Notes: generated from the letters alone by a model not told the origin. 63,546 nt of DNA, filler included, from Lenisia limosa (GCA_001655205.1; 12 parts of 12 records of this genome joined end to end with filler, not necessarily neighbours in it); one strand, 5' to 3'; counted from the first letter of the whole stretch, positions 5,131-63,546 are shown. Translations and numbers: made by a program.

Positions 5131-8100
5131 ATGGCTGACAAAAAGGTGTCAAAATGGCAAGGTAGGCACACTCAACCTACATGTTGGAGCTTATCATCAC
5201 TCCCCCACCCACCCAATATGTCATATTAAATCTTATGAATCTCCTATTCCCCCAGAACATACACAATATAATAACAACACGCCATTCCATTGTGCAAAAT
5301 AGAACCCAGACCAAAATCAAGGGGTCAATCGCTTTTATTCATCATATGATTTTTTCAAAACTCAACGATAAAATTTGGTTAATTGACACTTATAATTGCT
5401 TAATTGAGACGAGTTGCTTATTTAACCGTGACAGATTGCTTATTACTTTGACAGAGTGCTTATTTATCCAAGACAGATTGTTTATTTACCCAGACATTTG
5501 CTAATTTACCAGGTACGGAGCCGCACGTGTCGCATCCCGGACTCCGTACGGCAACCCTCCTTTTGGTCTCGACCCTCGCCGTCATGGCTGGCGCTCTGGT
5601 GTCGCCAGCCCTCCCCAAGATAAAAGATCACTTTGAGGATGACGTAGAGGTTGGCGTCGATAAGTTTAGGGTTGACCCTCCCCCCCACTCAATGTACATA
5701 ATACATATATACTAGATGTACACCTCCAGATATTGTATACTACATACTATACCATTCACCCTTTTTTCACCCTTCACCTACAGAACTCAGACTTTCTTGT
5801 CCGACTGATCATCACCCTTCCTTCGCTTGCCATTGCCTTTACTGCGCCTCTGTTCGGGTAGGCTCAGAGATGGAGGTCTGGATAGAGAGGTAGTAGATAT
5901 ATCATAATTAGGGCTATTGTTGTATATACAGTTGTGATATTGTTGTATATACAGTTGGGATATCATAATAACGGGCTGTTGTTGCAAAGGTATCATAAAA
6001 AAGGGATAGGGTTATTGTTGATATAATGAGACATTTTCCATACTCTCTTTGTACTTCGGCTAAATTTGATTTCATCAAGCTTGTTACTCTTGACTATATA
6101 GGCTTCTTTCCGATAAAATAGGAAGACGTCCGGTTCTGTTGTTTTCTGTAGTTCTCTTCGGACTAGGTAGGTATTGGCTCAACGCTCGACTTCGAGATGA
6201 TGTGTCCCTCTCATTTTATCACCCCCACCAACCTTTTCAATCTTGGCATCTATTTCAATTCGATACATCACAATAACGTGTCTGTGATAACTTCGTTTTA
6301 TGTTACTTTTTTATTATCTCGCAGCTGGTGGAATATGCGCGGCCATGACCAATATTTACGCCATTCTGTTCTTCAGGTATTTGGGGTGATATGTGTTTTT
6401 ATGTTGAATGTCTTGAACAGCAAGAGTCAATAGATTTGTCTTATCCATAAACCACCAACATTTTCTCATAATTACAGGCTTTGGCTTGGCGTTGCCTGTG
6501 GAGGCCTCACCCCCACTACTGGTATGGTACGGGCTTCGGCGCATAGGAATGCATTTTTTTAGATTGGGAATCTTGCTGGTATTATATCATATTTCATATA
6601 CTATGTTGCAGTTTACATGTACATGTATATCATCATCATATATTATAGCTACATATACTACGGGCGGTGCTTTCAAGGAATACATGGGAATGGTGCTGAA
6701 ACATACGTATGATATGATATGCTATGTGTATATGTATGAGCATGGAGGGGGGGGGGGCTAATCACAGTTTNNNNNNNNNNNNNNNNNNNNNNNNNNNNNN
6801 NNNNNNNNNNNNNNNNNNNNNNNNNNNNNNNNNNNNNNNNNNNATGTTTGTCTCAGAATTATCATGGCTTTGTACATGCACACATTATACGCATTGCTAT
6901 TTCCAATATTTCCAAAACCTACCAAATTAACTACCATTTGTAAGTAACAATCCAGTGGCTCTCTTAGCTGACTACTTCTACCCGAATCAAAGGGCGCGAG
7001 TAATGGGTGGGTCAAGATAGTGATACCATCTATTTCCTCAGGTACCAGATCCTCTTTTGGGTTTATTCATGTGTTTACGGCAATCAAGTTGATTTTGGAT
7101 TATTTTTGTTTCATACTACTCAACCCCCCACCTCGTGTGTGTTTTTTGAGTTTTAGAGTTTTAGATTATTCAGTTCGTGATTAGTACCTTTATACCAGTA
7201 GTCTTCATCACATTCCTTCGTTTCACCCCCCAGGCCTTCAATCAGCAACAATGTCAAGTGGTGGCTTTGTGTATCTTCTTCTCAGCGGCTTTCTGACCTC
7301 TTTCGGATGGCAGTACCCCTTTCTTATCTACTTTGTTGCCTGGCGTGGGGGGGGGGTGACATTGTCTTTCTTTACGTATGGGTATCTTTTTCGTTTTTGT
7401 TTCTATGAGACTAAAACTGCTTCATTATTTGATTTTTGCTTGGGGTGCGTGGGTATCTCAGTTTTATTTCTTTGGTATCTGTTTGATTTTGTCACCACCA
7501 CCTCTCTCACGAAACCAGTGTTCTTCATTCCCGCCTGCCTGTTCATAAATGAGCCCCCAAGACAGAAGAAACCGCAGCTCATGGCGGTATCCATCCAGGT
7601 CCGTTGGAAGATTGCCTTCATAATACTCGAGTCTGTTGGAAGATATGGTGAAGTGGTGCCTTCATGACAAAAACGTGTTGGCTTTTGATGTACCGGGGAT
7701 TTGGGGATATAAATAGTACATGTATTCTCTTTTTGAATATTGGAATCTTTTATCACGCTTCCTGTTATACTGCAACCCGTTTTACACAGTTTGAGTTCAT
7801 CTCACCACTAGGGCGTCACTTCGGTTTGATAAAATGTCGATAGTTTTCGAGGATATATCGAGAGAAAAAGTCTTTTTTCTCACCACCCTACCCCAGAATC
7901 CGTCAGAAGGTACTGAACCGTGTGATAAGCTTGCTGTTAAGGGCGAGAGCGGGGACGGGAGTGATGTGAGAGAGGTGGAGCTTAGCCCTGTCAGTGATGG
8001 GGAGGAAGATGGCACTGTGGAGGAAGAGAAAGAGGATGAAAAGGAAGAGAAGAAAGAAGATGTAAAGGAAGAGAAAGGAGATGTAAAGGAAGAGAAGAAA

Positions 8101-10750
8101 TATGAAGACGATGAAGATGGAAAGAAGGGTTTGGAAGTGGGCAAGCAAGAAGTGTCTACAACGGCTCCAGTGGAGGACTCTCTTATCGAAACCGAAACGA
8201 GGGAAGAGCCTGTCTCACCTGCACCAGCAATTGGTAAGTTGGGAAACAACGTTTTACCAATAACACTATTGTTCGATCGGTATCTTTTATTGTATTGGAA
8301 TCCTAAGCCTTGAATAAGCATGAGGAATTTTGCTATGTTTCTTAATTTGTAATCGTTTTTTGAATTTGACCTACACCCTTATAGTGGCTCCTGCGCCTAC
8401 CGCATGTCAAACTACTACTCTCTGGGTATGACTTGGGATCTAAATATTCGCTATGTGGGGTGAAGAATCCATATTTTTGTGTCTGAATATACGATATCAA
8501 AGTCCTTCATCACTTTTAACAGAGATATTGAATAGGAATAGTGGAGGATATTCATTACCCAACGTTTTACCTTACTACAGTAGAAAAATTTTGGTAATAG
8601 TATAATATCAGACTTTATTATTCTAATTCTGTGACACATTTACATATTTCTCAGCAACCTGGTAGTTTTTGTTGTGTGTTTACAAAGTAGGCGATCTTTT
8701 TGGTGTATTTCATTGTTTTCTGCTCGCAGACATTGTTCTACTGGTACATTGTTGAGGTAGGCTATCAAGGCTCTTTTGCAATGAAACTGAGTGATTCGGC
8801 TTATGATCATATGATCTGAGTAGGGCTTCACGTCAATTCGAAAAAAGGCTGAATTTCTCGATAAATCCTCGAAAACTATCGATGTTTACCGGTCTTTTTC
8901 GAACCGAAGTGAAGCCCTAGATCTGATGTAAACATTTGGCTTATGACCATATGATCTGATGTTCATATTCTTTCCGAGCTCATATTCGAAGCGTCATGTT
9001 TGTCCTCCTCTCCCATCATCATTTTCCCATTTACTCTCATCATTTACCCTCCAGGTATCCTTCTTTTTAGAGGACCATATTGAGTCTGACAGTTCCGTAA
9101 TGAACGCCATTGCTATCGGTAGGAGGGGGAAATGGAGGAGAAATGATGTTGTTTGTCGTAAAGAGACTCAGGGTTTTTGATTCTAAACTTATCAAATTGT
9201 AACCCCCTAATGTTGTAGCTTTGGTGGCTGTTTCGGGGGTTTCTACGTCACTCCAGGTCAAGAGAATGGTCAAAGTCGTTAGGTATGTTTGGCTAATCGT
9301 TATTTTGAGTAGTAGAATTAATTCTTCCTTGCGGTCCGAAAATACCTGTCAAATGTCTATTGAGGATTTATCGGGAAATTCAGTCTTTTTTTGGGACCGC
9401 AGGGAAGCCCTCAGTGCAGTATTTGGAGTTTGTTAAGATCTTTGGGGCACCATGAATCCTCGTATTTGCGTTTACGTGGAGTCTTAAATCTTAGTTTCTG
9501 ACCCTTTAGACCACACACTGTTCCGATGCTGGCCTTCTTCTTCTTCTCTGTTTCCTACTTGCTGATGTGGCAAGCACAGGCGTATTGGCATGTTGCCTTG
9601 GCTATGCTTCTCTTCGGTAAGATATGGATCGTAAGGTATTGAGAGTATTCGGCAATCGTGATAAAATGTCAGTCTGAAGGTTACTCCTGTTCTTATTTTT
9701 ATATCATATCATATGTGTGTTGTGTGATGATATACTAATACATATGATGTACTAGCTATATGTTATACGTAGGGCTTCCCTATGGTCCCAAAAAAGACTG
9801 AAGTTCTCGATAAATCCTCGATAAATATCGATATTTGACCGTTATTTTTCTGACCTAGGGAAGCCCAAGTTATATGATCTACAATACGCCTTATTTTGTT
9901 CCCTTCAAATGCCTTATCTTTACTTCGATCTCTTAGGGATGGGCCTCGGTATCCAAAGACCGCTTGCATCGATCCTTGTTGCAGCCCACTCTTCACCTAG
10001 TGTTCGCGGACGTTCGATGGGCGGCATGTCAAGTGCCATGTATCTTGCTAGGGTGGGGCAGGTACAAAAAACATGCATTACATTAGTTGCATTTTTTGAC
10101 CCTTAGGGGGAGGGACGGAATTGATGATTGGAGGAAGCTTCCTCTAAATATGACTATTTCTCATATTGAAGTCATTTGCTGCCCCAAAACCCAGTTGCTC
10201 TCTCACTAAGGCTTCACTTCGGTTCGAAAAATATTAGTAAAATATCAATAATTCTCGAGGATTTATCTAGAGATTAAGTCTTTTTTTTTCGAAACGAAGT
10301 GAAGCCAAAACCCTGTTGTGGATATTGTAATGCCCTCACGCCCACCAATACTCATCCCTATTGGAATGTTAAGTATAACATATAGGTTGATTCTTCTTTC
10401 ATATTCGCCAATCACCCCTCCCCCCCAGTTGCAGAAGCTGCTGCTCTGGGCTTTGTTTGTTTTTGTTGTCAACCCTCGTGTATTATCAGCCAACAGAGTT
10501 GATTTTGGGATTATTTTGTTTCATGAATTTTCCAGTTTTACCAGTTTTACNNNNNNNNNNNNNNNNNNNNNNNNNNNNNNNNNNNNNNNNNNNNNNNNNN
10601 NNNNNNNNNNNNNNNNNNNNNNNNNNNNNNNNNNNNNNNNNNNNNNNNNNNNNNNNNNNNNGACGTCCGTTTGGTGTGGAGCGTCGGTTTCGCCCTCGCC
10701 ATTTTCCTGTTTATTGTGGGTTTTTTTGCGGTGCGGATGGCTCTTCTTTT
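5131..10750 (+). CDS. Multi-exon major facilitator superfamily (MFS_1-type) transporter with a long acidic central loop
   Basis: ATG 5131 exon joins in frame (intron 5162-5512) to TATLLLVSTLAVMAGALVSPALPKIKDHF. Later exons read AGGICAAMTNIYAILFFR, GLQSATMSSGGFVYLLLSGFLTSFGWQYPFLIYF and GMGLGIQRPLASILVAAHSSPSVRGRSMGGMSSAMYLA, typical MFS helices. Glu/Lys-rich exon ~7930-8232. 3' end uncertain. Confidence 0.8.
5404..5512 (+). repeat. Imperfect 20-22-nt tandem repeat (5 units) ending exactly at an intron acceptor
   Basis: Units approximate GACAGATTGCTTATTTACCCA; the last unit GACATTTGCTAATTTACCAG carries the CTAAT branch-like motif and the AG used by MFS exon 2. Confidence 0.8.
7040..7130 (+). 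repeat. Repeat B (acceptor-associated), degenerate
   Basis: AAGTTGATTTTGGATTATTTTTGTTTCATA...ACCCCCCA; immediately followed by repeat C. Confidence 0.7.
7131..7233 (+). repeat. Repeat C (acceptor-associated)
   Basis: ...GTTCGTGATTAGTACCTTTA...TTCATC..TTCCTTCGTTTCACCCCCCAG; ends at the AG of the MFS exon GLQSATM. Confidence 0.85.
7809..7878 (-). mobile_element. MITE A1, right terminus missing but perfect 8-bp TSD
   Basis: CTCACCAC at 7801-7808 and 7879-7886; intronic in the MFS gene. Confidence 0.8.
8821..8919 (+). mobile_element. MITE A1, full length
   Basis: TAGGGCTTCAC...GTGAAGCCCTA; TSD GATCTGAG / GATCTGAT (7 of 8). Confidence 0.95.
9319..9412 (-). mobile_element. MITE A2, degenerate
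   Basis: Right end GGGACCGCAGGGAAGCCCT plus core; TSD decayed (5 of 8). Confidence 0.8.
9770..9868 (+). mobile_element. MITE A2, full length
   Basis: TAGGGCTTCCCTATGGTCCC...TAGGGAAGCCCAA; TSD GTTATACG / GTTATATG (7 of 8). Confidence 0.95.
10207..10309 (-). mobile_element. MITE A1
   Basis: TAAGGCTTCACTTCGGTTCGAAAA...CGAAGTGAAGCC termini. Confidence 0.9.
10429..10550 (+). repeat. Repeat B
   Basis: GCAGAAGC..CTGGGCTTTGTTTGTTTTTGTTGTCAACCCTCGTG..CAGCCAACAGAGTTGATTTTGGG..TTTCATGAATTTTCCAGTTTTAC; then a gap, then the last MFS exon. Confidence 0.9.
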
Positions 10751-10810
10751 TGAGGGGGCTCAAATTGTTCCATTTGGCTTGCATAATGATATTGATATCT
10801 GTACTTCAGA

Positions 10811-10907
10811 AAAGGCTTCACTTTGGTTCGAAAAGACCGGTAAAATATAGATAGTTTTCGAGGATTTATCGAAATTCAGTCTTTTTTTGAACCGAAGTGA
10901 AGCCCTA
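10811..10907 (-). mobile_element. MITE A1
   Basis: TIRs and core intact; possible decayed TSD TACTTCAG / TACATCAA. Confidence 0.9.
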
Positions 10908-11039
10908 TACATCAATATGTTATAATCATATTATCATATGATACTACGTACATATCATTGTATACAAAATATACGCTGGTCTACTATGTCTAAATTTCCA
11001 GGGGGCAGCCCTCTTCTCGCTAGTGGCCAAAATCAGGCG

Positions 11040-12240
11040 GAACTCCTCCCCGGTGAAGAATGGTATTTAGAGCGTTTTAAGTGTATTAACGTTATTCATG
11101 GTAGATCGTGGAGGAATAGAGTCTCAAAGTTAAATTTATTTTTATTTTTGAGATTTGGGGGAAGAAATTGAAGTACTCCATCTATTGTTGCGAAAGTGCA
11201 GGAAAATGAATAATGCTTGAAATAAAGTTCCTTGACCAGGTGTTAGGGGTTCCACTGAATTTTTCGATAAATCCTCGATAAATATCGATATTTGACCGGT
11301 CTTTTTCGGACCATGGAAGCCCTAGGTGCAATTACTACAAACATACATAACTACGAGAAAAAGAGAAAACAGCAACACTACTTACATACCGACCACACAC
11401 GAAACATCTACATATCCCACCAGACATCGAGTGTCACACTTGACCCGTACCACTCCTTCGCAGAGCCGTATCGGTATTTTGAATCCTTGTGGAATAATGG
11501 CATGGTCACTGTTTGACGGGCAGCGCTGAGACAGAGCTGGGGGAAAGTGAAAAGGGGGGGACAAGAGAAGGAGTTGAAAGAAGACAAAGAAGACAAAGAA
11601 GACACCCACCTGGTTGACAGGGATGCGGGTGAAGGCCTTCGAGGTTTGCTGCTTTGGAGTCGGGCCCACTGTCTTTAAGTCCACAATGATGCCTCCAACT
11701 GTGGGAGGGTGGGGGAAAAGTGAAACTGGAGAATATATGAAACAAAAAAAAGCCCAAAATCAACTCCGTTGGCTGACAACACAAGAGGGTGGATAACAAC
11801 ANNNNNNNNNNNNNNNNNNNNNNNNNNNNNNNNNNNNNNNNNNNNNNNNNNNNNNNNNNNNNNNNNNNNNNNNNNNNNNNNNNNNNNNNNNNNNNNNNNN
11901 NNNNNNNNNNNNNNNNNNNNNNNNNNNNNNNNNNNNNNNNNNNNGCAATTGTTGCATTTGGGTAACACAAAAGGGCTGATAACGCACCCAGACAAGCATC
12001 CTCATAACGCATGTCATATCATACATACCCCCGCATACGAACGTCAGCCATGAGAGCTTGTTTGGTGTAGGGGGTCTTGAGAGAAGAGGCGAAGATGAGT
12101 TCGTTCTTCGTATCATTCCTTCTGCCATTTGCTGCCAGTTCTTTGGGACTTACGGGGATGGTATTGTTTGATTCTGAGTGGAGTGAGGAATGCCAAGAGA
12201 GTGCTTAACACGCCCATGAGCTGTTTGGGTATTACACAGA
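11040..12240 (-). CDS. Fragment of a multi-exon gene of unknown function
   Basis: GT-AG-bounded open exons such as GGIIVDLKTVGPTPKQQTSKAFTRIPVNQ (from 11698) and LCLSAARQTVTMPLFHKDSKYRYGSAKEWYG; no family recognised. Confidence 0.4.
11244..11324 (+). mobile_element. MITE A2 with internal deletion
   Basis: TAGGGGTTCC...CGGACCATGGAAGCCCTA with core. Confidence 0.85.
11711..11801 (-). repeat. Repeat B
   Basis: Reverse complement of the consensus; its C-rich end runs into the acceptor CCCACAG (AG at 11700-11699). Confidence 0.9.
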
Positions 12241-12242
12241 GA

Positions 12243-12535: not shown

Positions 12536-15069
12536 TTCATATGGGGTAAACTTATCATCGTGCCATCAGATCACAGCTTTGTTTGGGTCGATACAACACG
12601 TGTAATTTACAATAAAAAAAGAAAATAGAGTGGTCATATGCAGTGAATCCCAATAACCAGAATTTCGACATCGTGAAGATAGGTAACAACAGTCAATGGA
12701 TCATTAAGGGCCCACTTCCAAATCTGATGATGTTAGGCACGATTCACAGATACTTATCGAGAATCTAATCAACCTAATGGAAACATAAAACAGTTCTGAC
12801 CTGTTATCAAAGTTTTGTACAGTTTTTCAAAGTTGAAAAACTTTAATAACAGCTCTGCAAAGGGTGATTACACAACAGAGATACTCACCCAAAGGAGCAT
12901 GACATTATTTTTTTTCCAACACTCACTTTAAAGCAAATTTGAAAAGGGATCCATGTTAGACTGTCCTACACGAAAGTTAAACATTTAGTTATTTTAGACT
13001 TTTCTCCTAGAAGAAAGTGAAATATTTCGTTGTATCCATTTTAGACTTTCCGAGATTAGTTGTTCTTATTTCCATGTCCTGGGGAGCACCTCAATCAGAA
13101 AACAAATTGGAGTTAATTCACAAAAAAATATATGAGACAAAGAAATGCTGAAAAAAAATTAAACTGTCATTCCCAATCAGCCCACCTGAAGTTTAGTCAG
13201 GATATCGCGAAGTAGAGAGGGCGTCGGCTGAGCTATCGATAGCGCCCGGGGAAGACCATTCTAGGTGTAAATTATCAAGTATTTTGACATTCTGAAACTC
13301 TAAATGAACATTAGAGAAAGAGAGACCCGATAATATAATAGGGAGATGGATGCTGGGTACAGGGTATCTAAACTGTACCCAAAAGAGAGCAAGCAACCTC
13401 CACCAACACCAACTGCTACTGACTACAATATTGGTAGACAGGCACCAGCAGACCCCTGAACAACAATACACATCATCCTGCATGCCTTTTTGATGGAAGG
13501 TCCACGAGGTCTTGGTAAGATCGCCGGATAATGAAAACGGAGGTCCATCTTTGGTCAAAGATCAAAAACACCCATGTGAACGACCCGACCCGTCTGTCAA
13601 GCAGAATGTTCTGAGCCCGCTCTTATCTTTTTAAATTAATAACAACTATCAAATAAGCGCCTTAAGCAAGCAATATTGGGGAAGAGTTGACTGGCCGCAA
13701 AACAATTACACCGAAAATGTCTTATGTGGAGGTATACTTCTACTTTTTCATAAATAATTAAATAATACAATATAGTTACTTTTTTATTTAGTAATAATCA
13801 GGGGGAACTAAATTAAAGCTAGGATGTGTGTGTATATCATACACCTACACTTCCGCCTGAGTTGGGATCAACGTGTTCTACTACCCCATGCTTGTTGGTC
13901 TCTTTCGCCACCATACCTTAAGCCTTTGCTTAAATAGTATTTCAGAGTTTCTAAGACTCTGCAGAGAGTTATAGTTTAAGAAGAAGGTATACTTGGATGT
14001 GAAATGTTTGTTGTTTGTTCCATGAACCTAGGCTGATCTTGCCCCCTTCTCCTCGTTTATTAGGAATAATTAGCCACTTTCTTGATATTAGCAATGGGAA
14101 ATATGGTGTTTAGACCTTCCTCGTTGGCGCCTTTTCTTGTTGTCCTAATTCTACTCACAACTTTCTCTGAGCCGTACCGATATCTTGTTTATTTCTCTGT
14201 TTTGGAGCTGTAATCAAATATTTAGATCTTAGAGAGGACGTTGAGCCACTGCATAGTTATAGTTTGGAAGGTATGCTTCTCGGGGATTTTACTGGGGATG
14301 ATTTGCTCGGGGTGTTGTACCAATCTATGATCGAAGTCACAGTAAAGGATACTTGGGCACCAATCGGACAGCGAGACGCAACCCAGCAAGGAAAGAAGAC
14401 AAGAAGAAAGAAAGAGAAATCGTCAAATCCGTTTTAAAGTTTGAGATTATGAAGAGCAGATCCTTCCTCCTTTCCCCCTTCTCCACTCCTGTTAAATCGC
14501 GTGCGTCGCTTTGCTTTGGACCAGATCTCCTCATAGCATCAGTGCCAAAGCAAAGGTCCTCCCTTTGACCTAAAGCCTCACCAAGCGGACCTTTTATAGA
14601 CAAGAGTACATGAACCTGTTCAGTGATCTCTAACTTCAGAAAATCACTCTCAACCAAATGTCTTTTTTGTTTATAAGCCCATGACGGAAGCTGATCAAAG
14701 AGCACCATTGGGGCTTGTTAACAACCTGAAAAATACTTGGTAATGAAGCTGAAGACTTAAGCTAATTGATCAGCAAAAAAAATATCACTTTTTATCACTA
14801 AAATCTAAAACAAAAAGGGAGGGGTTCAGAAAAAAACGGAAATAAAGAAACTGGGTTACCTAGTACAGTCAGAATTCGTTGAGTACTTAGTTTTGAATAA
14901 AAACTGTGATTTGTGGGGTCCTCAGAAAAAAAAGGTACNNNNNNNNNNATCCTTGGTTAAATGTGCTGTGATTCAACTCATATACCTGATTCAACTCAGG
15001 TACAGTGACTTATGCCCTAGAGGTAAGATACTCCAGTATTTCAGCACAATTTATAATAAACAGCGTCTG

Positions 15070-15700
15070 TTCGGGTTTTCAGACAATCTTGAAGTTGAAT
15101 TCTCTCAAAAAGTGGCAGAAACCACAGAAGTACCTTGCATGACAAAGTTTTTATTATTATTTTTTTGAAAAATTTTAACCTTAAGATCAAAAAATTTCCT
15201 GGCTAACGTTTAAAAAATTGTTTTTTTTTTTTGTGTTTATGCCCGTTCCACTCGGTTTAGTTTCGAATGAAGTCTTTTTCTGAAACCGCAGACTTCTAAA
15301 ACCTATGGATTCATGCAGCTTTCGTCAAAAAATATTTTGAAAGATATCCACATTCTTATCAATAATTGACTAATATTTCGGACACAAGGTTGCAAATATG
15401 CCTTGAACTGGACCTACCAGTGTTATATCTCAAGCCTATCCAAAAAAATTGATGAAAACTGCATGAATCCATTGATTTTAGAGGTCTGCGGTTTCAGAAA
15501 AAGGCTTTATTCGAAACTAAACCGAGTGGAACGGGCATAAACACAAAAAAATCAATTTTTTAAAGGTTAGCCAGGAAATTTTTTGATATTAAGGTCAAAA
15601 ATTTTCAAAATAATAAAAAAAACTTTGTCATGCAAGATCCTTCTGTGGTATCTGCCACTTTTTGAAAGAATTCAACATCAAGATTGTCTGGAAACCCGAA
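15070..15700. mobile_element. Foldback-type element: about 260-bp inverted arms with about 110-bp spacer
   Basis: Arm 15070-15333 is the reverse complement of about 15442-15700, e.g. TTTATGCCCGTTCCACTCGGTTTAGTTTCGAAT vs ATTCGAAACTAAACCGAGTGGAACGGGCATAAA; no TSD found. Confidence 0.9.
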
Positions 15701-16039
15701 TTGTCAAAAAAAAACCGGAATTTTGAACGGAACACATTGATATTGTTGTTTCCTCATTATAAGCTCTATTATCTCAATCCACTCTTCATAGTCTTAAAAG
15801 AGGATATTTTTGCCCAGTTTGAAGTGTAATAGTTTTATTGACAAAAGAAAGGAATGAAAAGAAACACAAATTAAAAAATGAAATGGCATTAATTCGAATT
15901 CCTGAATCAATTGAGGACCTTGAGATTCATTTTGCTTGTTTGTTGCGTGACTTGTGATGTGGCTCTAGTTTGTTGTAGATATCATATAGTGTCCTTGTTT
16001 TTGTATTCCTTTTCAATAACCTTTTATTTGTAACAATAG

Positions 16040-19453: not shown

Positions 19454-21260
19454 TTGGGAGTAAAACCAAATATCCTGACAAACATGGAAAAAGATCGTAT
19501 TCTCAAGGAGATTGCTGAGCTGATAGTGAATCTGCCACCTGATTCAATCTATGACCAGGCTTCGTGCTGCATGTACCCAATGGCAAGTGGCTACGCAATC
19601 AAAGTTCCCAAAAGCCAAATTTATGAATCATTTAAGAGTTTGATGAAGAAGCAGGCTGATCCAAGTAACACAGAACANNNNNNNNNNNNNNNNNNNNNNN
19701 NNNNNNNNNNNNNNNNNNNNNNNNNNNNNNNNNNNNNNNNNNNNNNNNNNNNNNNNNNNNNNNNNNNNNNNNNNNNNNNNNNNNNNNNNNNNNNNNNNNN
19801 NNNNNNNNNNNNNNNNNNNNNNNNNNNNNNNNNNNNNNNNNNNNNNNNNNNNNNNNNNNNNNNNNNNNNNNNNNNNNNNNNAGAAATGAGAAAAAGTACT
19901 AACACAACAATCATTATCATATCATTTCACCAATTATATCTCATGTAAACTCTGAGCTCCCCAATGCCTTCATTGATTGATTATGCTTGTGACTTGTTCT
20001 CACCACATTCAGCCGGAAAATGTTCTGCAAATGGCGCGGTTATGGAATGCTAGTCAGCGTATTTGGTCACACTGCAAGAGTGTAGCTGCCTCATCTAAGA
20101 CCAAAAACCCAGATACCCTCAACAAACTTGGAGTACAGTCCTATCATACTGCCTTGACTATTGAACTTCTGGTTGCACGTTTGGTTACCGCATGTAGAGA
20201 ATCGATGGACGGAAACTTTNNNNNNNNNNTAAAGAGTTTTACCAGGCCTATCAAAAGAAGGCAACAACGATGCTTGGAAAAAAGTTCTCTGCTCTGGAAA
20301 AATCATGCGAAATGGTTAGTTTCTTCGTTCACCGTTTTGATTTTGTCAACGATAAACAGCTCTTATCCATCGGGGGGGGGGGGTTATCATATTCTGTTGA
20401 GGTAGACGTCACTGAATAGTTTGAAAAGTGTTGTTACTTATGTTTGATGCATTTTTACATTTTAGAAAATAAAGGCCTCAAGTCGTGACACCTATCCCAT
20501 CATTGAACACGCTGTTGATGTTCTTGATACCGTCACCCCGGATTACCAGTGCCCCTGCTCTCGAGTGTTCTTTGGTGATGAAATCGCATGGATGAAGTCC
20601 TATTGGAGGGATGTAAAGGGTGAATGCTTGGTTTCTGCTATATCAATGACCAACCTGGAAGGATTGGTGGTTGAGTCTTCCATTGTGGTTGGAGGAGAGT
20701 TGATCTACAAGAAAGCAGTGGCAAGATCAGAGGCAGCTAAGAAGAAAGGAAGAAAGGCAAGGCCAAAGATTCGAAAGACAGGTGTGAAAGAAGTTGACGA
20801 AGTTGCGGATTGGGTAAACCAGAACCCTTTTGAAGAAACCCTCAGGATGAAGGAGCCCAGTAAAAAGTCCCATGCAGCCGCCAAAAAGTACTCAATGAAC
20901 GTTATTGGCATTAATTCGAGTACTTTCTTCAATACAGAGGCTGTAATGCTAACTATGGAGAAACTTCACATCAATATGAACTCTACTGCTGGTAACCCTA
21001 TTATTGTGGTTGTGGACGGAGCGAGACCACATATCACTCCAGAGGTTCGTGACTTGATAACTACCCAATATTTCCTAATATCTACCTAGCTTTGGCAACT
21101 TATATCATCTAACTTTTTCAGATGTCTGCTTCTATATTCCTTGAATTCTTCATCAGTTTGGTGGCAGAACCGGCCTTTACGTCGCATTTTATGCAGGTAT
21201 GGGAGAATGGTATATTGGCCTGGTGTATTCCATACGACTAGCACTTTTTTTTCTATTGTC
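19454..21260 (+). mobile_element. Degenerate pogo/Tc1-mariner-type DDE transposase gene (DDE_1-like), interrupted by gaps and a probable frameshift
   Basis: RVFFGDE (first Asp region, ~20562-20581) and PIIVVVDGARPHITPEVRDL (second Asp region, ~20997-21057). Downstream YLPSFGNLYHLTFSDV lies in a shifted frame. N-terminal KPNILTNMEKDRILKEIAEL resembles an HTH start. TIRs not located. Confidence 0.6.
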
Positions 21261-21895: not shown

Positions 21896-21959
21896 AGGAG
21901 GGAAGGAGTCGGCACTACTTTTGTATCGAGGACCCCTTCGAACTGACTCACAACCTGGG
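21896..21959 (+). CDS. Exon of a Cid1/TUTase-family non-canonical poly(A)/poly(U) polymerase (PAP-associated motif)
   Basis: Reads GRSRHYFCIEDPFELTHNLG followed by donor GTGGGT; IEDPFxxxxNLG is the hallmark PAP-associated nucleotide-recognition motif. The rest of the gene is mostly in N gaps. Confidence 0.6.
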
Positions 21960-21984
21960 GTGGGTATATGGCCTGATACACAAC

Positions 21985-22066
21985 TAGGGCTTCACTTCGG
22001 TAAATTATCGATAGTTGAAGATTTATCGAGAAACTCGGTCTTTTTTTGAACCGAAGTGAAGCACCA
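21985..22066 (-). mobile_element. MITE A1 in the intron after the TUTase-motif exon
   Basis: TAGGGCTTCACTTCGG...CCGAAGTGAAGCACCA. Confidence 0.9.
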
Positions 22067-22147
22067 CTCACAACCTGGGGTAGGTATATGGTGGGGGGTA
22101 CAATATTAGGAGAGTAGCTATCATTGCAGAGGGAGGAGGGTACTGCG

Positions 22148-22224
22148 TGAATCGTCAGCCAACAGTGTCGATTTTGGGCTTTTTTTTTTGTTTCATAAAT
22201 TTTCCTATTTTACCCCCCCCCCCC
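22148..22224 (+). repeat. Repeat B, 5'-truncated, ending in poly-C at a gap
   Basis: GTCAGCCAACAGTGTCGATTTTGGGCTTTT..TTTCATAAATTTTCCTATTTTACCCC; same strand as the TUTase-motif exon. Confidence 0.9.
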
Positions 22225-22397
22225 NNNNNNNNNNNNNNNNNNNNNNNNNNNNNNNNNNNNNNNNNNNNNNNNNNNNNNNNNNNNNNNNNNNNNNNNNNNN
22301 NNNNNNNNNNNNNNNNNNNNNNNNNNNNNNNNNNNNNNNNNNNNNNNNNNNNNNNNNNNNNNNNNNNNNNNNNNNNNNNNNNNNNNNNNNNNNNNNA

Positions 22398-22580
22398 TTT
22401 ATGAAACAAAAAAAAGCCCGAAATCAACTCCGGTGACTAGCGACCACACAGGGGGCGGGGGGGAAGTAATTTCGATGAAGAATATTGGCGTAAAGGTACT
22501 AATCACGAACCGAATAATGTGAAACTCCAAACGAACAGAAAACAAAAAACAAAAAACAAGCATACACACGAGCAACCAAC
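22398..22580 (-). repeat. Tandem repeat C followed by repeat B
   Basis: On the minus strand: C (about 22580-22456), C-run, then B (about 22455-22398) into the gap. Confidence 0.85.
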
Positions 22581-25158
22581 GATAAAACCAGATGACAAAA
22601 AACACAAAAAAAACAAGGGATATGCGTGTTATTCGACATTTTGTCATTCAGCTTCTCTAACACACTAGGAGGAACTACTCAAAGAACGACAACTTCCTCC
22701 TCCAAAGGAAAGAGTGGGAGGGGGGGGNNNNNNNNNNNNNNNNNNNNNNNNNNNNNNNNNNNNNNNNNNNNNNNNNNNNNNNNNNNNNNNNNNNNNNNNN
22801 NNNNNNNNNNNNNNNNNNNNNNNNNNNNNNNNNNNNNNNNNNNNNNNNNNNNNNNNNNNNNNNNNNNNNNNNNNNNNNNNNNNNACTGATACTTCTGCTG
22901 AAGAAAACTGATTTGATATTTTAATGTATTTTGATAGAGTTTACAAATATTGGCTTCTTCTAACCTGTTCAGCAAAACCCTAATAGCGCGTCACACTGAT
23001 GTCTCAATTATCAATGAGTATGACATGAAGTTGTACAGACATCTTCACCGCTATCGATTCGAGGCCGGTTAGTTCAGAATCTTCACTATCTCCCCTTCCC
23101 CGCTCTTGGCTATCAGTGTTTTTCGCGAACCTTCAAAAGTGTCCCTGAAAACATCGATGTATATGTGGCCAAAATGTAATTGCTTTTGATTGCAATTATC
23201 TCCTTCCTTTCACTAACTTTCCGTTTTGCTCGAGTTTATCGATGAGGGTATCATTATTCGAGGATTAATCAAGAAATTCGGGTTCCATCGTTTTTCAGAG
23301 ATGACAAACATCAAGCGGATAATTCTAGATAGCCTCGATAAAACTTCAAAAAACCTAGAACCTGTATTTTACCACCCCTTTTCGGGTGGTATGGAAGCCT
23401 TATCACCATGTGATTTTGACCCGAAATGTTTCAATAGGGAAGATACATAGCTAAACCTAAACCTCATAGGGGAAATCTCTATATCGGGGAAAATCTCGGG
23501 CTGGGGGAGGGGGCGATCTTGACATCCCTACGCATGGCGAGCAGCAGAGATGGACATGGCTCGGATGTCAGCCTCGAGATCCTCTAGATCCTTTTGGACC
23601 TTACGCTGGATTGCTGCCTGGAGGGTCGATTGGTAAAAATGAGGAGGTGAAAACGAAGGGAATTTCAATGAAAAATATTGGCGTAAAGGTACTAATCACG
23701 AACCGAATCATCTGATACCCAACACAAAACAAAAAACAAGCAATAACAAAGGGTGGTATATAATGGTTACAATGGAATTTTATGGGGGGGCAATTTATGA
23801 GGGGATTTCTATGAATATACTACATAGAGGGTTTGTGTAGACAATACCAGATGAACTGAAGAAAATCTATCCCCCGGGCACCTCATCCACCGAAAGAGGG
23901 GTGACGCTCATACGATCCATTTCATGTCTGAGCATGTCCACAGTCACAATCGAATCCTCCAGGGCCTGAAGCGCCTCTTCCCTATGGGGTTATTTAGCAT
24001 CCTTCAATATGGCTTCCCTATGTTCTCGATAAATACTCGATAAATATCGATATTTTTAGGGTCTTTTTCAACTGTAGGGAAGCCCCATTTAGTACCCTAA
24101 TAAACAACGTGATTAGTCGCAAGTGGTCCCCTACGGTCACCCAAAAAGATAAAGAGAACTGAAATAAGCTCGCATAAAGGTTCAAATGAGAAGTCTGGCC
24201 AATGCCTTCCACAATAAGAGTTATATCATGGTACTCACTTTGCAGCAAGGTTCTTTGAGTGGAACGTTTCCTAGAAAGTCAAAATCCATACAAAGTTTGA
24301 ATATTCTTCTTTTAAACTTTCTTGTTCTTAAGGGGCTAAAAACAAAAAGACCGACATTTTCATCATATGCAGTATATCAATATAGCATAGTTAAGCCACA
24401 TCAAACAGTACCCCACCTCTACGGGAAATTCGTTTTCGCTGTTTTGGTCCTGCTGGGGAGGTTCTACAAAAGTGGGGGGGGGGGGAGNNNNNNNNNNNNN
24501 NNNNNNNNNNNNNNNNNNNNNNNNNNNNNNNNNNNNNNNNNNNNNNNNNNNATGAAATCAGCTCTAGGAAGCCCCTGGGACCTCTTGAGGGTACCGAGCT
24601 GCACTGAGACATCCCATCAGAGGGCCTAAAGAGGTTAGTTCAGGAATCCCTGTATTTTTGGTGTTTTTTTTAAAGAAATTATTTGACAAAACGTGAGAAG
24701 AAAAGAAGAAAAAAAAACAAAAAGAGGAAAAAAGGAGTAAACAAAAAAAAAAGGGGGGGGGGGNNNNNNNNNNNNNNNNNNNNNNNNNNNNNNNNNNNNN
24801 NNNNNNNNCTCGAGAACAGCAAGAAAACAACACGAGAGAGAATAGAAGAAGCCAAGGACATACATAGCGGTACGGTCTGGGGTGGCAGCAGCTGGCTGGC
24901 TCGGATATAAGCCAATACTAGCGGGGGTGAGGACACTGGGGGGTATAGATAACCGTTATATCAGCCTTTTTCGTTATATACTATATGTACCTATCTATGT
25001 ATATTATTTGATATGTATGATAAAAGATATAGTATCATATAGTATTTGCAAATACTCAGCAAACCTGGGGGGCACTTCGACCTGGTTCTGGTCACATAAA
25101 TCCAGGAGAGCGGCAATCATAGCCTCCGCCTGGGCTCTTTTCCTCGATTCGGCTCGTA
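22400..25158 (-). CDS. Multi-exon coiled-coil protein fragment, function unknown
   Basis: Splice-bounded open exons RAESRKRAQAEAMIAALL, EEALQALEDSIVTVDMLRHEMDRM and AAIQRKVQKDLEDLEADIRAMS (exon from 23617). Confidence 0.45.
23640..23750 (-). repeat. Repeat C
   Basis: TTCGGTTCGTGATTAGTACCTTTACGCCAATATTTTTCATTGAAATTCCCTTCGTTTTCACCTCC on minus; predicted AG at 23619-23618. Confidence 0.9.
24008..24087 (+). mobile_element. MITE A2 with internal deletion
   Basis: TATGGCTTCCCTA...TGTAGGGAAGCCCCA with core. Confidence 0.85.
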
Positions 25159-37979: not shown

Positions 37980-38072
37980 GGAGGGGAGGGGGGTGAAACG
38001 AAGGAAATTTCGATGAAGAATATTGGGGTAAAGGTACAGATTACGAACAAAACACAAAAAAACAATCCCAAT
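37980..38072 (-). repeat. Repeat C
   Basis: Ends TTCCTTCGTTTCACCCCCCTCCCCTCCCTCAG on minus, directly into an exon of the coiled-coil gene. Confidence 0.9.
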
Positions 38073-49778: not shown

Positions 49779-51818
49779 ATGACTAAGGTTGCCGGTCTTC
49801 GTGTTCGTCCTTTCAAGGGTCTTTGCCCCCGTCCTAACATTGTTGAGAAGCTCTGTGGTCCTCCTTACGATGTCCTCAACACCGAGGAGGCTCGTAAGAT
49901 GGCTGAAGGCAATGAATTCTCTATTCTCCACATCAACAAGGCTCAGATTGACCTCGATGCCTCGGTTGACCAGTACTCTCAACAGGTTTGACATGAAAAG
50001 ATTTATTTTCGTTTCTGACTGTTTAGGTGTACGATCTTGCTCGTGACAACCTCAAGAAGTTCATTGACGAGGGACACATGCAGAGAGATGAGATGGAGTG
50101 TCTTTACATCTACAAGCAACACATGGCTGGCCTCCACCCTCAATATGGTGTCATGGGAGTTGTCCCTACTGAGCAGTACAACGCTGGCTTGATCAAGGTT
50201 TGATAGATTTCACAAATCAGTCTTCAGTCTTCTCCTTCTTCTCTTCTTCTTTGTGGCTCTAATTCTTTAATATTGTCTCCGATACTCGTAACTATAAGCA
50301 GAGGACTTCCGCTAATGCCCCTCTCCTCAACATTGTTCACTTTTCAGCGTCACGAGAAGACCCGCAAGGCAAAGGAAGATGACCGTACCAAGACTGTCAA
50401 CATCCAGAATGCCAACGTTGGACCCGTTTTCCTTACCTACCCGTGAGCCTGGACTGACTTGAGTTCTGAAGCTTCACTTCTTTCCCTTTCTTCCTAATTT
50501 ACCCCTTCCTTTCCAGTCCTCAGGAGCGCATCAACGAGCTTGTTTCCCGCATCACCTCTGAGAAGGCCGACTACGACTTCAAGGCTACCTACGAGCCAGT
50601 CCAGCACACCCTTTGGAAGGTTCGACCTTCGCTTCCTCTCTTTTCTTGTGGTCTTCTTGGGGACATTTCTGACGATGTAGGTTAAGGACGCCGGTATGCA
50701 GAAGGCCCTCATCAGCGCTTTCGACGAGCTTGTCCCCGCCGCCTACGTCGCTGACGGCCACCACCGTGCTGGTGAGAGTTTCTTCTTGAAACCTATTGTA
50801 CTGCCTTGAATTTCTTATCATCAACCGCTAATCACGACAGCTTCCGCCGCCCGTGTTGGAGACATCCGCCGCAAGAAGGCCGAGGCCGAAGGCAAGGTCG
50901 TCACTGGTAGGCACCTCGGGGCGTGTAGTTATTCTATCTGCATCCTTACTCCATTCTTCATTATACACGCTTCAACTAAAGTATGTAGGTGAGGAGTGCT
51001 TCAACTACTTCCTTGCTGTGATCTTCCCCGGAGACCAGCTCAACGTTCTTGACTACAACCGCGTTGTCAAAGACCTTAACGGCCTTAAGCCCGCTGAGTT
51101 CATCACTAAGGTCGAGGAGCACTTCGCTGTCGAGAAGGTCAAGGGTAAGCATGACTTCTGGTTGATTCTATGGTGGTTTCTTCTTTCAAACCTTCGTCTG
51201 ACACCCGTTTAGACCACGTTGAGGCTAAGAACCTCTCCAAGAACGTTTTCTCCATGTACATTGAGAAGCAGTGGTACAAGCTCACGCTTAAGGCCGTAAG
51301 CTCATCACCTTTGTCACACCATTATCAGCTGAAGCCCCGTTGACCCTTTAGAACGAGCAGCCCGAGGACATCGTTGACAAGCTTGACGTTTCCATCCTCA
51401 CCCATACTGTCCTCGAGCCCATCCTCGCTATTGGCGGTAAGCCTGGTTATTGAAATCTTGTGTGGTGATGCTCTTTCGTCCTTTTATTCAGAGTGCAAGT
51501 ACCAGTTTAACGCAATAGACCTCCGTACCGACTCGCGCATCGACTTTGTTGGTGGCATCCGCGGTTACCCCGAGCTCGAGAAGCACGTTGACTCCGGCAA
51601 CATGGCCGTTGCCTTCGGTGTGTTCCCCGTCGACATCAACGACCTCATGGCTATCTCGTATGTTGGGCTCTCTTTTTATTTTATCTGCATGTTTCCTCTC
51701 CTGACTCCCCAGTGAAGCTGATCGTCTTATGCCCCCCAAGTCCACCTGGTTCGAGCCTAAGCTCGCTTCCGGCATGGTTGTCCGCACTATTGATGAGGGA
51801 TGTGTCCCCGAGTTCTAA
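49779..51818 (+). CDS. DUF1015 family protein, complete, 11 exons
   Basis: Exons 49779-49985, 50027-50197, 50348-50442, 50517-50619, 50681-50771, 50841-50906, 50989-51144, 51213-51295, 51352-51436, 51519-51657, 51713-51818 splice in frame. Motifs RPFKGL, PPYDV, RHEKTR, YVADGHHRAASA, YNRVVKDLNG, DFVGGIRG, MPPKSTWFEPKL. Strong codon bias. Confidence 0.95.
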
Positions 51819-59633: not shown

Positions 59634-59728
59634 TAGGGCTTCACGTTGGTTCGACAAAAGACTGAATTTCTCGATAAATCCTCGAAAACTATCGATATTT
59701 TCCCAGTGTTTTTCGAACTGAAGCCCTA
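59634..59728 (+). mobile_element. MITE A1
   Basis: TAGGGCTTCAC...GAAGCCCTA with intact core; no TSD evident. Confidence 0.9.
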
Positions 59729-59952
59729 GTTATACATAAGTCTGAAAACTCAATAAGTATAAAATCTATGCCAGTCTTTTCCAGTATAAAGAAAGCCTTA
59801 AAGAATCATCATCCCCCAATATGCACTTTTCACCCCCTCCCCCCAATTTCAANNNNNNNNNNNNNNNNNNNNNNNNNNNNNNNNNNNNNNNNNNNNTTAA
59901 TTAATTAANNNNNNNNNNNNNNNNNNNNNNNNNNNNNNNNNNNNNNNNNNNN

Positions 59953-60019
59953 GTTTCTAGCCGACAGAGTTGATCTTGGGCTTTTTTATATTTCATAAAT
60001 TTCCCATTTTACTCCCTAG
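59953..60019 (+). repeat. Repeat B, 3' part
   Basis: AGCCGACAGAGTTGATCTTGGGCTTTT..TTTCATAAATTTCCCATTTTACTCCCTAG; ends at the AG. Confidence 0.9.
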
Positions 60020-61800
60020 GGCTGCCCACATCCCTGACGACCCCCTTGGTCACTCAGTTCACGAGTTCTTCCGATATCACGTGTCAGGCTTTGCAACCGG
60101 CGGGAACGTCGCCCCCATGTTTACCGGAAGTATGGGGACATTATTGGGTGGTGTTTACCGGAAGCAGATCTCAAGATCTGGCAGAATTTGAAGAAAGATC
60201 TGGTAATATTTTGAAGATCCGGTTGAAGATCTGAGAAAATATTCCAGATGAACATTTTACCCGGATCTGCAGCCCCTTGACCGGAAATATGGGGCACTAC
60301 GGGGTTGTAATGTTTACCAGGGTATTATGGAATTTCAATAAAGAATAGCGCAGAGTGGGATCCCGAACTGCCAAGTTTCCCAACCGTCCAAGATGGCGTG
60401 GTGATTTTTTTACATGGGTGGGTGGTGATGTTAACTGGAGGTATGAGTTCGATTAGCGGTCTTCACCTATTCTTGAGAAAAGTCGTCGAACTATTCCAGT
60501 TCTAACATTTCAAACCACCTGCGGCCAAGTACAGCCAGGATAACGTGAACGGAGAATCGGTGTACGGAACACTCGGCCTGTTGTTGGTAGCGATTGACTG
60601 TGGCGCATGGAGACACTACGGGGGATGTATACAATTAACACCCATGAGCATGTTTATTAGAGGGTGTTGATGTTATTCTCATTTTCTCTCTGACCGCTTA
60701 GCTTACGCGAAAAAAGCACCTGTTTTCCTGGAAGGTTAGCCTATCTTGTTTTGATATCTTCACCAAAGTAATTGTTTGACACCGTTACCACAGTGGTTGC
60801 TTTTGACATCTTTACCACAATGATTTGACATCTTAACCTAAGGGGCTGTTATGACATCTTATCCTAAGGGGCATTTTTGAAAGAAAGAAGCCTCATTAAG
60901 TGGTGACGTTTTCTCACAATGTAGCACACTCCCACTACGTGACCCAAAGCGTCATGGCAATTTGCCAAGACTACTTCAACATGTACACTGGGAAAAAGGT
61001 TGGCGGATCTGAATCGCATCCATTATTTGTTTGTATTTTTATCTATTTTCTTGCTAATGGCGATGAAAAAGACTATATCGTCAACATTGGCGATGACAAA
61101 GACTATATCGTCAACAATAGCGATGACAAAGACTATATCGTCAACAATGGCGATGACAAAGATATCGTCAACAATTCAGTTGACATTTCCGTTTTGTTCT
61201 TTGCAATACAGCAAGGGATTATTGCTACTTCATAAAGCTGTCCATGCATAGGGGACGTTGACTATATTATCTGGCCGAAACCATCCACACCATCACGTTT
61301 ACAAGAGGAATAGATAATATCACGTTGACAAGGGGAATCGATAACAAGAGGTATTGATAATATCACGCTCACAAGAGGTATTGACATTATTTAGGACCGG
61401 GATATAGACCAGGAGTTTGTGGGGTGGGCATGTCATCCGGACTATCACCCCATGGAGGACCCTTATGGCCTGGCCAATGGCGGGCCTTACTCGATTAGTG
61501 GGGGGAGGGTGTGGAAGAAGTTTGTTTTTACGTTCCCCAGATTAACTTAGTTTATATGTTCAACCCCCAGATAAGCATGTTCATGTGTATCTGTCTAATC
61601 CCCCCCCCCCTTACCCTACGCTGGAGTGATAGAATGAGGTGCTACAGAAGCGTTGCTAGCCAATAGAGTTGATTTGGGCTTTTTTTCTTTGACATAAATT
61701 TTCCAATTTCACTCCCCCAGATAAGCGGTGTATAACAGGCCGCAATGTTCACCACTTTGGGTTTGACCAAATTGAGGGCTTCACGCGGGCGCATGTCGGG
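60020..61800 (+). CDS. Multi-exon gene fragment, unassigned
   Basis: Open exons after AG at 60019 (AAHIPDDPLGHSVHEFFRYHVSGFATGG), ~61430 (HPDYHPMEDPYGLANGGPYSI) and after AG at 61720 (KRCITGRNVHHFGFDQIEGFTRAHVG). Confidence 0.5.
61056..61174 (+). repeat. 30-bp tandem repeat, about 4 units
   Basis: AATGGCGATGACAAAGACTATATCGTCAAC units; last unit has a 3-nt deletion. Confidence 0.9.
61623..61720 (+). repeat. Repeat B with internal deletion
   Basis: GGAGTGATAGAATGAGGTGCTACAGAAGC..AGCCAATAGAGTTGATTTGGGC..CATAAATTTTCCAATTTCACTCCCCCAG; ends at the AG. Confidence 0.9.
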
Positions 61801-61830
61801 GTACCACGAGCGTCATTATGTGGGGGGTAT

Positions 61831-61893
61831 TACGGCTTCACTTCGGTTCGAAAAAAGACTGAATTTCTCGATAAATCCTCGAAAACTATCTAT
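61831..61893 (+). mobile_element. MITE A1 cut by the assembly spacer
   Basis: Near-consensus left TIR and core up to the N run. Confidence 0.9.
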
Positions 61894-61993
61894 NNNNNNN
61901 NNNNNNNNNNNNNNNNNNNNNNNNNNNNNNNNNNNNNTTAATTAATTAANNNNNNNNNNNNNNNNNNNNNNNNNNNNNNNNNNNNNNNNNNNN

Positions 61994-62865
61994 AGTGTCT
62001 CTGACAGCTCTTGGGACCCTTGTTACAGAGGCGGATTTGGACGAAGACGGCCAGCTGAGCCCGGCGGAATTCAAGGGACTCCTGTCGTCTCTTGGCATCG
62101 TGCTACCGGAAGAGTATGGGTTGTTTTGATAGAAGAGTATGGGTTGCCCCCATTTTACTCCCCTCAACGTTGTTTTATTCTCTATTATATATAGGGCTTC
62201 CCTTTTTTTTAACAAGAGAAATAATATACATTAGAAATATAGGGAAACCTGTATCTCACATCGCTACAGTGAAATGAGCGAGCTCGCCATGGGACTTGGG
62301 GCGGACAGCAACGGGTTCATAGACAACGCCGCTATCCTGGCAGGGCTCTCTTCCTGGGTGTCTGCTGGCGGCATGGTGGGGAGAGGTATTAGGTAATATG
62401 ATAATAAAAAGATGGTGTAGATTTGATAAGATAATGATAAAGGGGATGGAAGGAGATTATTAGGGCTTCCCTACGGTCAGGTATAACAGAACTCCTTTTG
62501 TGCAGTATCAACTTTGTTATTAATACTGACTATTAAGGCTTCACTTGGGTTTGGGAAAATATCGATAGTTTTCGAGGATTTATCGAGAAATTCAGTCTTT
62601 TTTCGAACCGAAGTGAAACGCTACTGACTATATCCTATTCCTCTGCTATTTATTGAACCTTTTCTCTTTTCACTTTTTAGCAATTTGGCGGGCAAGAAGA
62701 CACCCAAAGTCAAAGGTGGGTAAACAGCATAGCATAAATCACATAATAAGAGAATTTCGTAGTGGGGTTTTTGTTGCATAAATTTTCCAATTTTACATAC
62801 CACCCCCTGAATGTTAACAACCCCTTATTGTTTAGAATGATGACGTTCCTGTCTTCAACATTGGT
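61994..62865 (+). CDS. EF-hand calcium-binding protein fragment
   Basis: TLVTEADLDEDGQLSPAEFKGLL contains a canonical EF-hand loop; second exon GADSNGFIDNAAIL; further short exons at ~62689-62715 and 62836-62865. Confidence 0.7.
62534..62623 (-). mobile_element. MITE A1
   Basis: Perfect 8-bp TSD CTGACTAT at 62526-62533 and 62624-62631. Confidence 0.95.
62750..62810 (+). repeat. Repeat B, short 3' fragment
   Basis: GGGGTTTTTGTTGCATAAATTTTCCAATTTTAC; AG at 62834-62835 of an EF-hand gene exon. Confidence 0.7.
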
Positions 62866-62949
62866 GGCACCACAGGTGAGGCTCAGGCAAACCCTCACAT
62901 TTCAAGATATTCATATTCCTAGTATTCCAAAATATCATGCATATGTATA

Positions 62950-63031
62950 CACAGTGATCGGGATACGTCTTGACCGATTTACTATGTAATTTCCCAATGA
63001 AAATTGGTCAAGACTTATCCCGGTCACTGTA
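62950..63031. mobile_element. MITE family F (82 bp)
   Basis: Same ends and TA flanks as the 16489 copy. Confidence 0.85.
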
Positions 63032-63502
63032 TATTATAAGCGTGCTGGTGTGGACGGTTTCGGTCAGATACAACCAGTTTTTAGTTGATATCAACTTGAC
63101 ATATTCATGAATTACAACTAATTATCACATTACTTCTCTTGGAAGATTTCATGCAATTACCAGTTTCACTATTTAGCAGAGTATTCTTGAGCCAGTTTCA
63201 GCGGATTCTCCCAACAACTCCGCTCGTAAGCCCTGGTGCTACCTTATCTGGAAATACTGGCTCCACTCCAGTAAACCAAAGATCAGTGAACAGTTTTCTA
63301 GGATTTTTGTTAGATTTTCAGGCTTTTATATTTCGAAGGTGTAGCTCTAACTGCTGGAAGGTTTTTCCGTTCCATGAGATTCTAACCCCCCCCCCCTCCA
63401 CCCTCCATTAGACGCTTATAGAGTTGATTGATGGCTTTTGTTTCAAATGTTACCCCAGCAGCTTTGTTTTTTATTTGTAAAGTTTCTAATTTTACAAAAC
63501 AT

Positions 63503-63546
63503 TGGAGTGATGGGATGCTCTGGCCTGGCCTGTGCTTTGTTTGTTT
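63503..63546 (+). repeat. Repeat B, 5' part, cut by the window end
   Basis: TGGAGTGATGGGATGCTCTGGCCTGGCCTGTGCTTTGTTTGTTT matches the 5' parts of the copies at 61623 and 10429. Confidence 0.6.

Follow-up and report, generated by a model that had tools for sequence, protein, structure and literature searches.

Two dispersed repeats in the sense orientation at intron 3′ ends of a Lenisia limosa genome window: candidate short retroposons kept mainly at splice acceptors

How do two short dispersed repeats, B and C, come to lie on the coding strand at the 3′ ends of introns in unrelated genes? The question arises in a window of 63,546 nt, the whole stretch of DNA analyzed, which joins 12 short scaffolds with artificial linkers and belongs to an intron-rich single-celled eukaryote. 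The nearest protein to a DUF1015 gene exon in the window, at 98% identity, is a EukProt protein labeled Lenisia limosa, a breviate. All positional counts for B, C, and a third repeat, MITE A, refer to this single window. Its assembly gaps coincide with long C/G runs, and the RNA run contains a small share of the DNA words only, so missing RNA cover counts as no evidence.

The Lenisia protein delimits 10 ordinary introns of 41 to 150 nt in the DUF1015 gene (49899-51815). This gene has at least 10 short spliceosomal introns, and its relatives below the top match are bacterial where named, among the matches listed; an old lateral transfer is possible on this sequence pattern. Elsewhere in the window, a 28-nt tandem repeat at a scaffold start (1-148) reads as a satellite or chromosome-end repeat, an imperfect longer inverted-repeat structure recognized by eye (15047-15750) is probably another DNA element, and an intron-free open frame of 207 aa (20466-21086) has acidic motifs reminiscent of a DDE transposase remnant and no Pfam match.

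The first-pass annotation had counted about 12 copies of B and 4 of C, and both families are real. With up to 3 mismatches allowed, the B core motif matched five times and the C motif four times, and 100 shuffles of each gave none. A B profile trained on eight copies returned 11 matches at E ≤ 2.1e-4, all eight training copies among them, and two weak ones, at 35048-35076, which we left unassigned, and 63418-63451. The C profile found its four training copies and one match at chance level. A degenerate B at 44479-44567 and the fragments at 63460-63546 were added by eye and are not profile matches. Pairwise identity is 79 to 89% among B cores and 83 to 94% among C cores, from which both families would date from an old burst. 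B is up to about 135 nt long; the copies at 35836, 61622, and 63503 retain the 5′ part, as does an RNA contig derived from a different locus. When summed, DNA-contig depth amounts to 128,000 to 281,000 over B versus about 35 on unique DNA, a value that is not itself a copy count and that points to thousands of copies in the genome. Divergence among the copies is star-like; their common 3′ end is sharp and fixed, and the ragged 5′ ends stop at many positions. As first described, terminal inverted repeats (TIRs) are absent, with 0 to 5 of the 12 terminal bases complementary in 11 B/C copies. The alternative that B and C are the arms of a TIR element fails on the same count; moreover, in the two copies that face each other at 22213/22397, the fixed ends point toward one another.

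The idea that the repeats are SINE-like did not survive in its strict sense. A Pol III A box is absent from all 11 copies and a B box was found in a single one of them, on one strand, so that neither is consistent; Rfam returned no tRNA, 5S, or 7SL head, nor any family above chance, at E ≤ 1; and there is no poly(A) or simple-repeat 3′ tail, the fixed end being TTYAC set against host C-rich DNA. The A-rich stretches on the opposite strand of B are internal, not terminal. The hammerhead core motif and the C box were each detected once among 11 copies, in either case on the antisense strand, and folding of six copies was no better than that of shuffles (z-scores of −0.8 to +1.0), with no stable hairpin. 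With no Rfam match and no folding signal, we rejected a structured RNA, snoRNA, retrozyme, or 5.8S origin. No direct terminal repeat was found in B, and one of the four C copies has an internal one, by eye. B and C also look alike by eye in their tails, but the best of 12 comparisons was reached by 7 of 500 shuffles, and a shared recognition tail was thus rejected as not significant. Exact B or C motifs had no match in metagenome, viral, and prokaryote collections. A search of the 137 window open reading frames of at least 78 aa for a mobilizing partner (reverse transcriptase, GIY-YIG, or other) found none.

Thirteen copies in 12 introns have an assignable host strand, and every one lies in sense at the intron 3′ end. 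The strand was read from RNA contigs for two of them (10429 and 11720), from Pfam matches of an exon for five (MFS twice, FtsH, Cid1, and EF-hand), and from reading frames only for six. RNA supports two host introns only. A B copy at 11720-11801 (−) ends 21 nt before acceptor 11699, a predicted site now confirmed by RNA contigs that splice 12039 to 11698, with a continuous frame. The near full-length B at 10429-10550 (+) stands directly after an acceptor-like C-run and AG, downstream of an exon matching MFS_1 (E = 0.011), and enters a gap with the next exon. Since another RNA contig skips 10053-10550, without 96 nt that fit the gap behind B, this copy lies within an intron that does not use the AG at 10428 as its acceptor.

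The host genes recognized earlier from protein motifs (MFS, FtsH, and EF-hand) were upheld by Pfam. MFS intron 7007-7233 contains a B-then-C tandem, consisting of a degenerate B at 7055-7123 (+; profile match at 7070-7115, E = 7.7e-5, and alignment) and a C at 7131-7226 (+; motif and profile), 7 nt before acceptor 7233 and with its terminal A at −9; the frame is continuous, and the next exon matches MFS_1 (E = 0.006). In intron 35629-36003 of an FtsH/AAA protease gene, a B with its 5′ part (35836-35989, +; profile) is interrupted by a gap and followed, in continuous frame, by an exon matching AAA_lid_3 (E = 1e-13). An intron of a Cid1-family gene, whose upstream exon matches PAP_assoc (E = 7e-4), bears a B with an internal deletion that ends in a C-run at a gap (22126-22213, +; profile). 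The EF-hand gene (exon E = 2e-4) carries a short 3′ piece of B at 62762-62796 (+; profile E = 2.4e-5), 39 nt before predicted acceptor 62835, a site that keeps the frame.

Six copies were assigned by frame. Two are C copies found by motif and profile: one at 23647-23750 (−), 29 nt before predicted acceptor 23618, with a continuous frame across intron 23618-23881, and one at 37993-38072 (−), 18 nt before predicted acceptor 37975, with a scaffold break on its 5′ side. The others are a 5′-truncated B at 43450-43535 (−; profile), 21 nt before predicted acceptor 43429; the degenerate B at 44479-44567 (−), which was aligned by eye with a motif match, about 41 nt before predicted acceptor 44438; a degenerate B at 44828-44915 (−; profile E = 2.1e-4), 15 nt before predicted acceptor 44813; and a B with a 5′ end and an internal deletion at 61622-61712 (+; profile), with its terminal A at −10. 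The frame stayed open across all nine GT-AG introns tested; this test is not blind, because exon bounds were set by eye, with three of them later adjusted and a choice between two donors at 43429. Pfam recognized no family in the exons downstream of 60019, 61720, 43429, 23618, and 11699, and transcript-protein comparison gave no useful match for acceptors 44813, 43429, and 60019, a set in which intron made up over half of one query. At 44686-44753 and 43662-43731, an exon end and donor are tandemly duplicated over 42 and 39 nt, respectively, a possible source of alternative donors.

Six further copies or fragments have no assignable host strand. A C-then-B tandem combines the longest C copy (22464-22620, −; motif and profile) with a 5′-truncated B downstream (22397-22455, −; profile) that enters a gap. 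At a scaffold start, a B at 59953-60012 (+; profile) ends 7 nt before predicted acceptor 60019, with its terminal A at −9 and an open frame after the AG for which no homologue was found. Three degenerate B pieces lie head to tail at 63415-63546 (+; by eye and by a weak profile match, E = 0.094), the last cut by the window end. Besides these head-to-tail pieces and the mixed B/C tandems at 7055 and 22397, a contig joint of 11772 to 10446 shows two B pieces, either in tandem or inverted, 17 nt apart at another locus.

MITE A, a repeat of about 100 nt with terminal inverted repeats, occurs at 8820-8918 and some 18 other places, in both orientations as first reported, and its summed contig depth reaches 471,000 versus 35. 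It lies on the gene's strand in 5 of 13 cases versus 13 of 13 for B and C (Fisher p = 8e-4, with host strands read by the analyst), which bears out the strand bias claimed in the first-pass annotation. We conclude that the placement pattern of B and C is real and unusual. The same annotation had the elements ending 0 to 35 nt before an AG, a figure that held in part: the AG lies 7 to 41 nt from the terminal TTYAC and within 35 nt in 9 of 11 cases, but an AG follows within 40 nt of 88% of random positions, and the mean distance is equal for B/C, MITE A, and random positions. Distance to the next AG was thus discarded as evidence for acceptor placement.

What follows the elements is more telling. 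Across 12 element ends, C-richness before the AG exceeds chance (p < 1e-4), as does coding-like sequence after it (p = 0.002, or 0.015 against CCC-start positions), with one end (63454) devoid of coding-like sequence. At least four C residues occur in the next 8 nt at 13 of 16 element ends versus 8% of the background (p = 2e-12), several tracts being C-rich rather than pure runs. Acceptor-like sequence marks 7 of 10 occupied C-rich starts versus 187 of 825 unoccupied ones (p = 0.002 with a post hoc threshold; p = 0.047 in a rank test). No B or C copy lies at the C-runs of gene-poor scaffolds in the window, where splicing selection should not act. The preference for C-runs is clear and the extra signal for acceptors moderate; C-run preference alone does not explain the pattern, because occupied C-rich starts are more acceptor-like and gene-poor C-runs are empty. 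Nine of 11 host introns carry GGG, a C-run on the other strand, no farther than 12 nt from the donor, and none of these sites is occupied. On the opposite strand, the fixed junction reads G/TRAA (the slash marks the junction), which is donor-like, in 13 of 17 ends and RG/T in 11 of 17, the latter expected anyway from G-rich flanks.

Such a donor G-run distinguishes B/C-bearing introns (9 of 11; e.g., 7007-7233, 11699-12038, and 61498-61720) from ordinary ones (2 of 12, 10 of these 12 from one gene; p = 0.003). The long introns may make up a group of their own, G-rich at the 5′ end and C-rich at the 3′ end, and the two ends could pair.

An insertion in front of an acceptor would displace the branch point, and the elements had been proposed to supply both branch point and acceptor. 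Of 12 ordinary introns, 10 have a branch-like A between −9 and −12. Among 11 host introns, the element's terminal A sits at −9, −9, and −10 with no other candidate in three and is the sole candidate at −20 to −23 in another three, and a host rival is present in five. These positions fit the prediction that the element can supply the branch point. The element does not, by contrast, contribute the acceptor AG, which belongs to the host sequence or to a duplicate of it.

Flanking duplications of 12 to 13 nt that start at the C-run were found in 2 of the 11 copies with both flanks visible. In the FtsH intron, the upstream copy (35824-35835, +) recurs with one mismatch behind the element (35990-36003, +) together with the acceptor AG and a branch-like motif at −9. 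At the second locus, an exact 13-nt duplication covers the AG and six exon bases: the upstream copy (61564-61576, +) holds the former acceptor, the AG of which, at 61570, would run into a stop if used, and the downstream copy (61714-61726, +) holds predicted acceptor 61720 in continuous frame. Within the intervening insertion, 61577-61713, B is preceded by 45 foreign nucleotides of acceptor-like character. Among 559 CCC starts, the corresponding null comparison gave no exact and one near match. The other 9 of 11 copies show no clear duplication. At 21946-22092, an exon end and donor are duplicated on either side of a MITE A copy and 13 additional bases, exactly over 16 nt and nearly so over about 26 nt, an arrangement that differs from an ordinary short target duplication; flanking duplications are therefore not diagnostic here.

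The reading we favor, at about an even chance, is that B and C are short nonautonomous retroposons that were target primed at C-rich tracts and kept mainly at acceptors by splicing selection. The target-primed, copy-and-paste insertion at C-rich acceptor tracts proposed at first pass fits the data. A nick on the G-rich strand would prime cDNA at the element's 3′ end, thereby fixing orientation relative to the C-run and sometimes duplicating 12 to 13 nt of the acceptor, and incomplete copying would leave the ragged 5′ ends. At an acceptor, the element's TTYAC behind a U-rich tract would replace the displaced branch point, the downstream copy of the AG being used; it is by virtue of this ending that insertion there would be tolerated. 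Elsewhere in a short-intron gene, insertions would be harmful and purged, since a sense copy would act as a cryptic acceptor and an antisense copy, which begins with the donor-like GTRAAA, as a donor.

The strongest competitor, which we hold possible but distinctly less probable, is active acceptor targeting, i.e., integration machinery guided to 3′ splice sites by sequence context or a tie to the spliceosome. Under this alternative, the elements would be transcribed as the tail of a host intron and would need no promoter, because splicing makes their RNA end, in keeping with the inconsistent Pol III boxes. It would also account for the sense placement of all 13 copies at acceptors, the vacant donor-side C-runs in 9 of 11 host introns, the absence of copies from gene-poor scaffolds, and the 45 foreign nucleotides at 61577-61713, as expected from source-intron read-through. 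Nevertheless, the copies are old (79 to 94% pairwise), and selection has thus had long enough to operate; the vacancy of donor sites would be explained by the resemblance of the antisense junction to a donor; and in several cases a host branch motif lies in the 18 to 41 nt that separate the end of the copy from the AG. Moreover, a joint of 9392 to 11723 places a B end, 40 nt, and then MITE A in sequence that is not obviously exon, and a discrete B RNA is not evident from the RNA data. Equally tentative is the bolder form of this proposal, in which B and C would be splice-acceptor parasites whose RNA end comes from splicing and which are reverse transcribed into other acceptors, replacing branch points. 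If so, thousands of genes would splice through a mobile half-intron.

A DNA-level copy-and-paste by an HUH (Replitron-like) transposase, in which, on the strand opposite to the gene, insertion after RG would set the fixed left end and leave the other end fuzzy, seems unlikely. The RG/T junction in 11 of 17 ends speaks for it, and Replitron-1, for which the passages available describe orientation-specific insertion after RG, variable duplications, and parental flank at the other end, resembles the locus at 61564-61726 (PMC10288648). However, RG is expected from G-richness anyway, the variable end is heavily truncated, B lacks a direct terminal repeat and C has an internal one in one of four copies (by eye), and no stable hairpin emerged from the six copies folded (z-scores of −0.8 to +1.0). 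Furthermore, the same passages report Replitrons only from green, stramenopile, cryptist, and haptist lineages.

Slightly less credible still is that B and C are not transposons but two acceptor modules spread by gene conversion, breaks at long G/C runs being repaired from another intron's 3′ end via C-run microhomology. The coincidence of assembly gaps with such runs, the MITE A copy at which an exon end and donor are duplicated as if by repair, and inserts that include foreign flank would suit this explanation, but the sharp common 3′ end, star-like divergence, and thousands of apparent copies better fit an enzyme-driven burst. Least probable, by a wide margin from the favored reading, is that B and C are introners that created introns which later grew 5′ ends: the elements can supply a branch point and, in the passages available, protists have commonly gained introns en masse from elements (PMC11282704), but B and C occupy no more than the 3′ part of their introns, neither is related to the 11 host donors, and at 10428 and 61570 a former acceptor immediately precedes the element, so that the intron is older than the element.

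Known mobile elements make whole introns (introners) or new exons, whereas B and C appear to swap the 3′ signals of existing introns at scale. Such a swap would be a route for branch-point turnover and acceptor duplication and would also amount to a new safe harbor inside genes. If placement reflects active targeting, retrotransposition would be tied to splicing; the conservative reading still provides a natural many-copy test of the intron positions that tolerate insertion. The mostly open-access literature searched holds no description of these repeats or of acceptor-targeted elements, and the breviate preprint passages available have nothing on introns or repeats.

B and C share with SINEs and truncated LINE 3′ ends, such as intronic Alu, their shortness, lack of coding sequence, and fixed 3′ end and perhaps, in some copies, a variable-length duplication. 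Unlike SINEs, they have no Pol III boxes, tRNA/5S/7SL head, or poly(A). Alu supplies acceptors mostly in antisense and makes new exons, whereas B and C lie in sense and serve an existing exon. Introners and introner-like elements (Micromonas IE, Amoebophrya, and Polarella) are likewise many-copy intronic repeats with splice signals, and their AG comes from the duplicated target in the passages available (PMC11282704). They span the whole intron, enter exons, and mostly have TIRs, whereas B and C lack TIRs and insert into the 3′ ends of introns already present. Likeness to Replitron-1 and Replitron-N1, as described in part of the source, may extend to RG insertion, variable duplication, and one fuzzy end (PMC10288648), but the direct terminal repeats and terminal hairpin of those elements are not seen in B and C, which are far shorter and truncated.

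In behavior, the closest counterparts of B and C would be Chlamys-type Penelope-like elements. The passages available describe insertion at (C)n, 5′ truncation, and nonautonomous members (PMC8557442) and report that de novo Chlamys insertions in Chlamydomonas, of median 128 bp, are all intronic (PMC9977147). The nonautonomous representatives (Chlamys-N4_cRei with Chlamys-9_cRei, and MRC1) resemble B and C in that they insert at (C)n, are fixed at the 3′ end but strongly truncated at the 5′ end, give very short insertions in introns, and lack a hammerhead; their partial tandems may also have a counterpart in the B and B/C tandems (PMC8557442, PMC9977147). Insertion at (C)n with 5′ truncation and intronic placement is therefore not new, as it has been described for these elements. 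The same passages treat the target as a microsatellite and, unlike the situation of B and C, do not connect insertion with acceptors, gene strand, or branch points; they list green algae, spike mosses, and a slime mold, not breviates, and no Chlamys-type partner was seen in the window open reading frames. Lastly, safe-harbor retrotransposons such as TRE5-A and Ty1/Ty3 at tRNA genes are like B and C in that their placement spares genes in a dense genome. The harbors differ: those elements use Pol III genes, outside coding genes, whereas the site of B and C is inside genes, at the acceptor.
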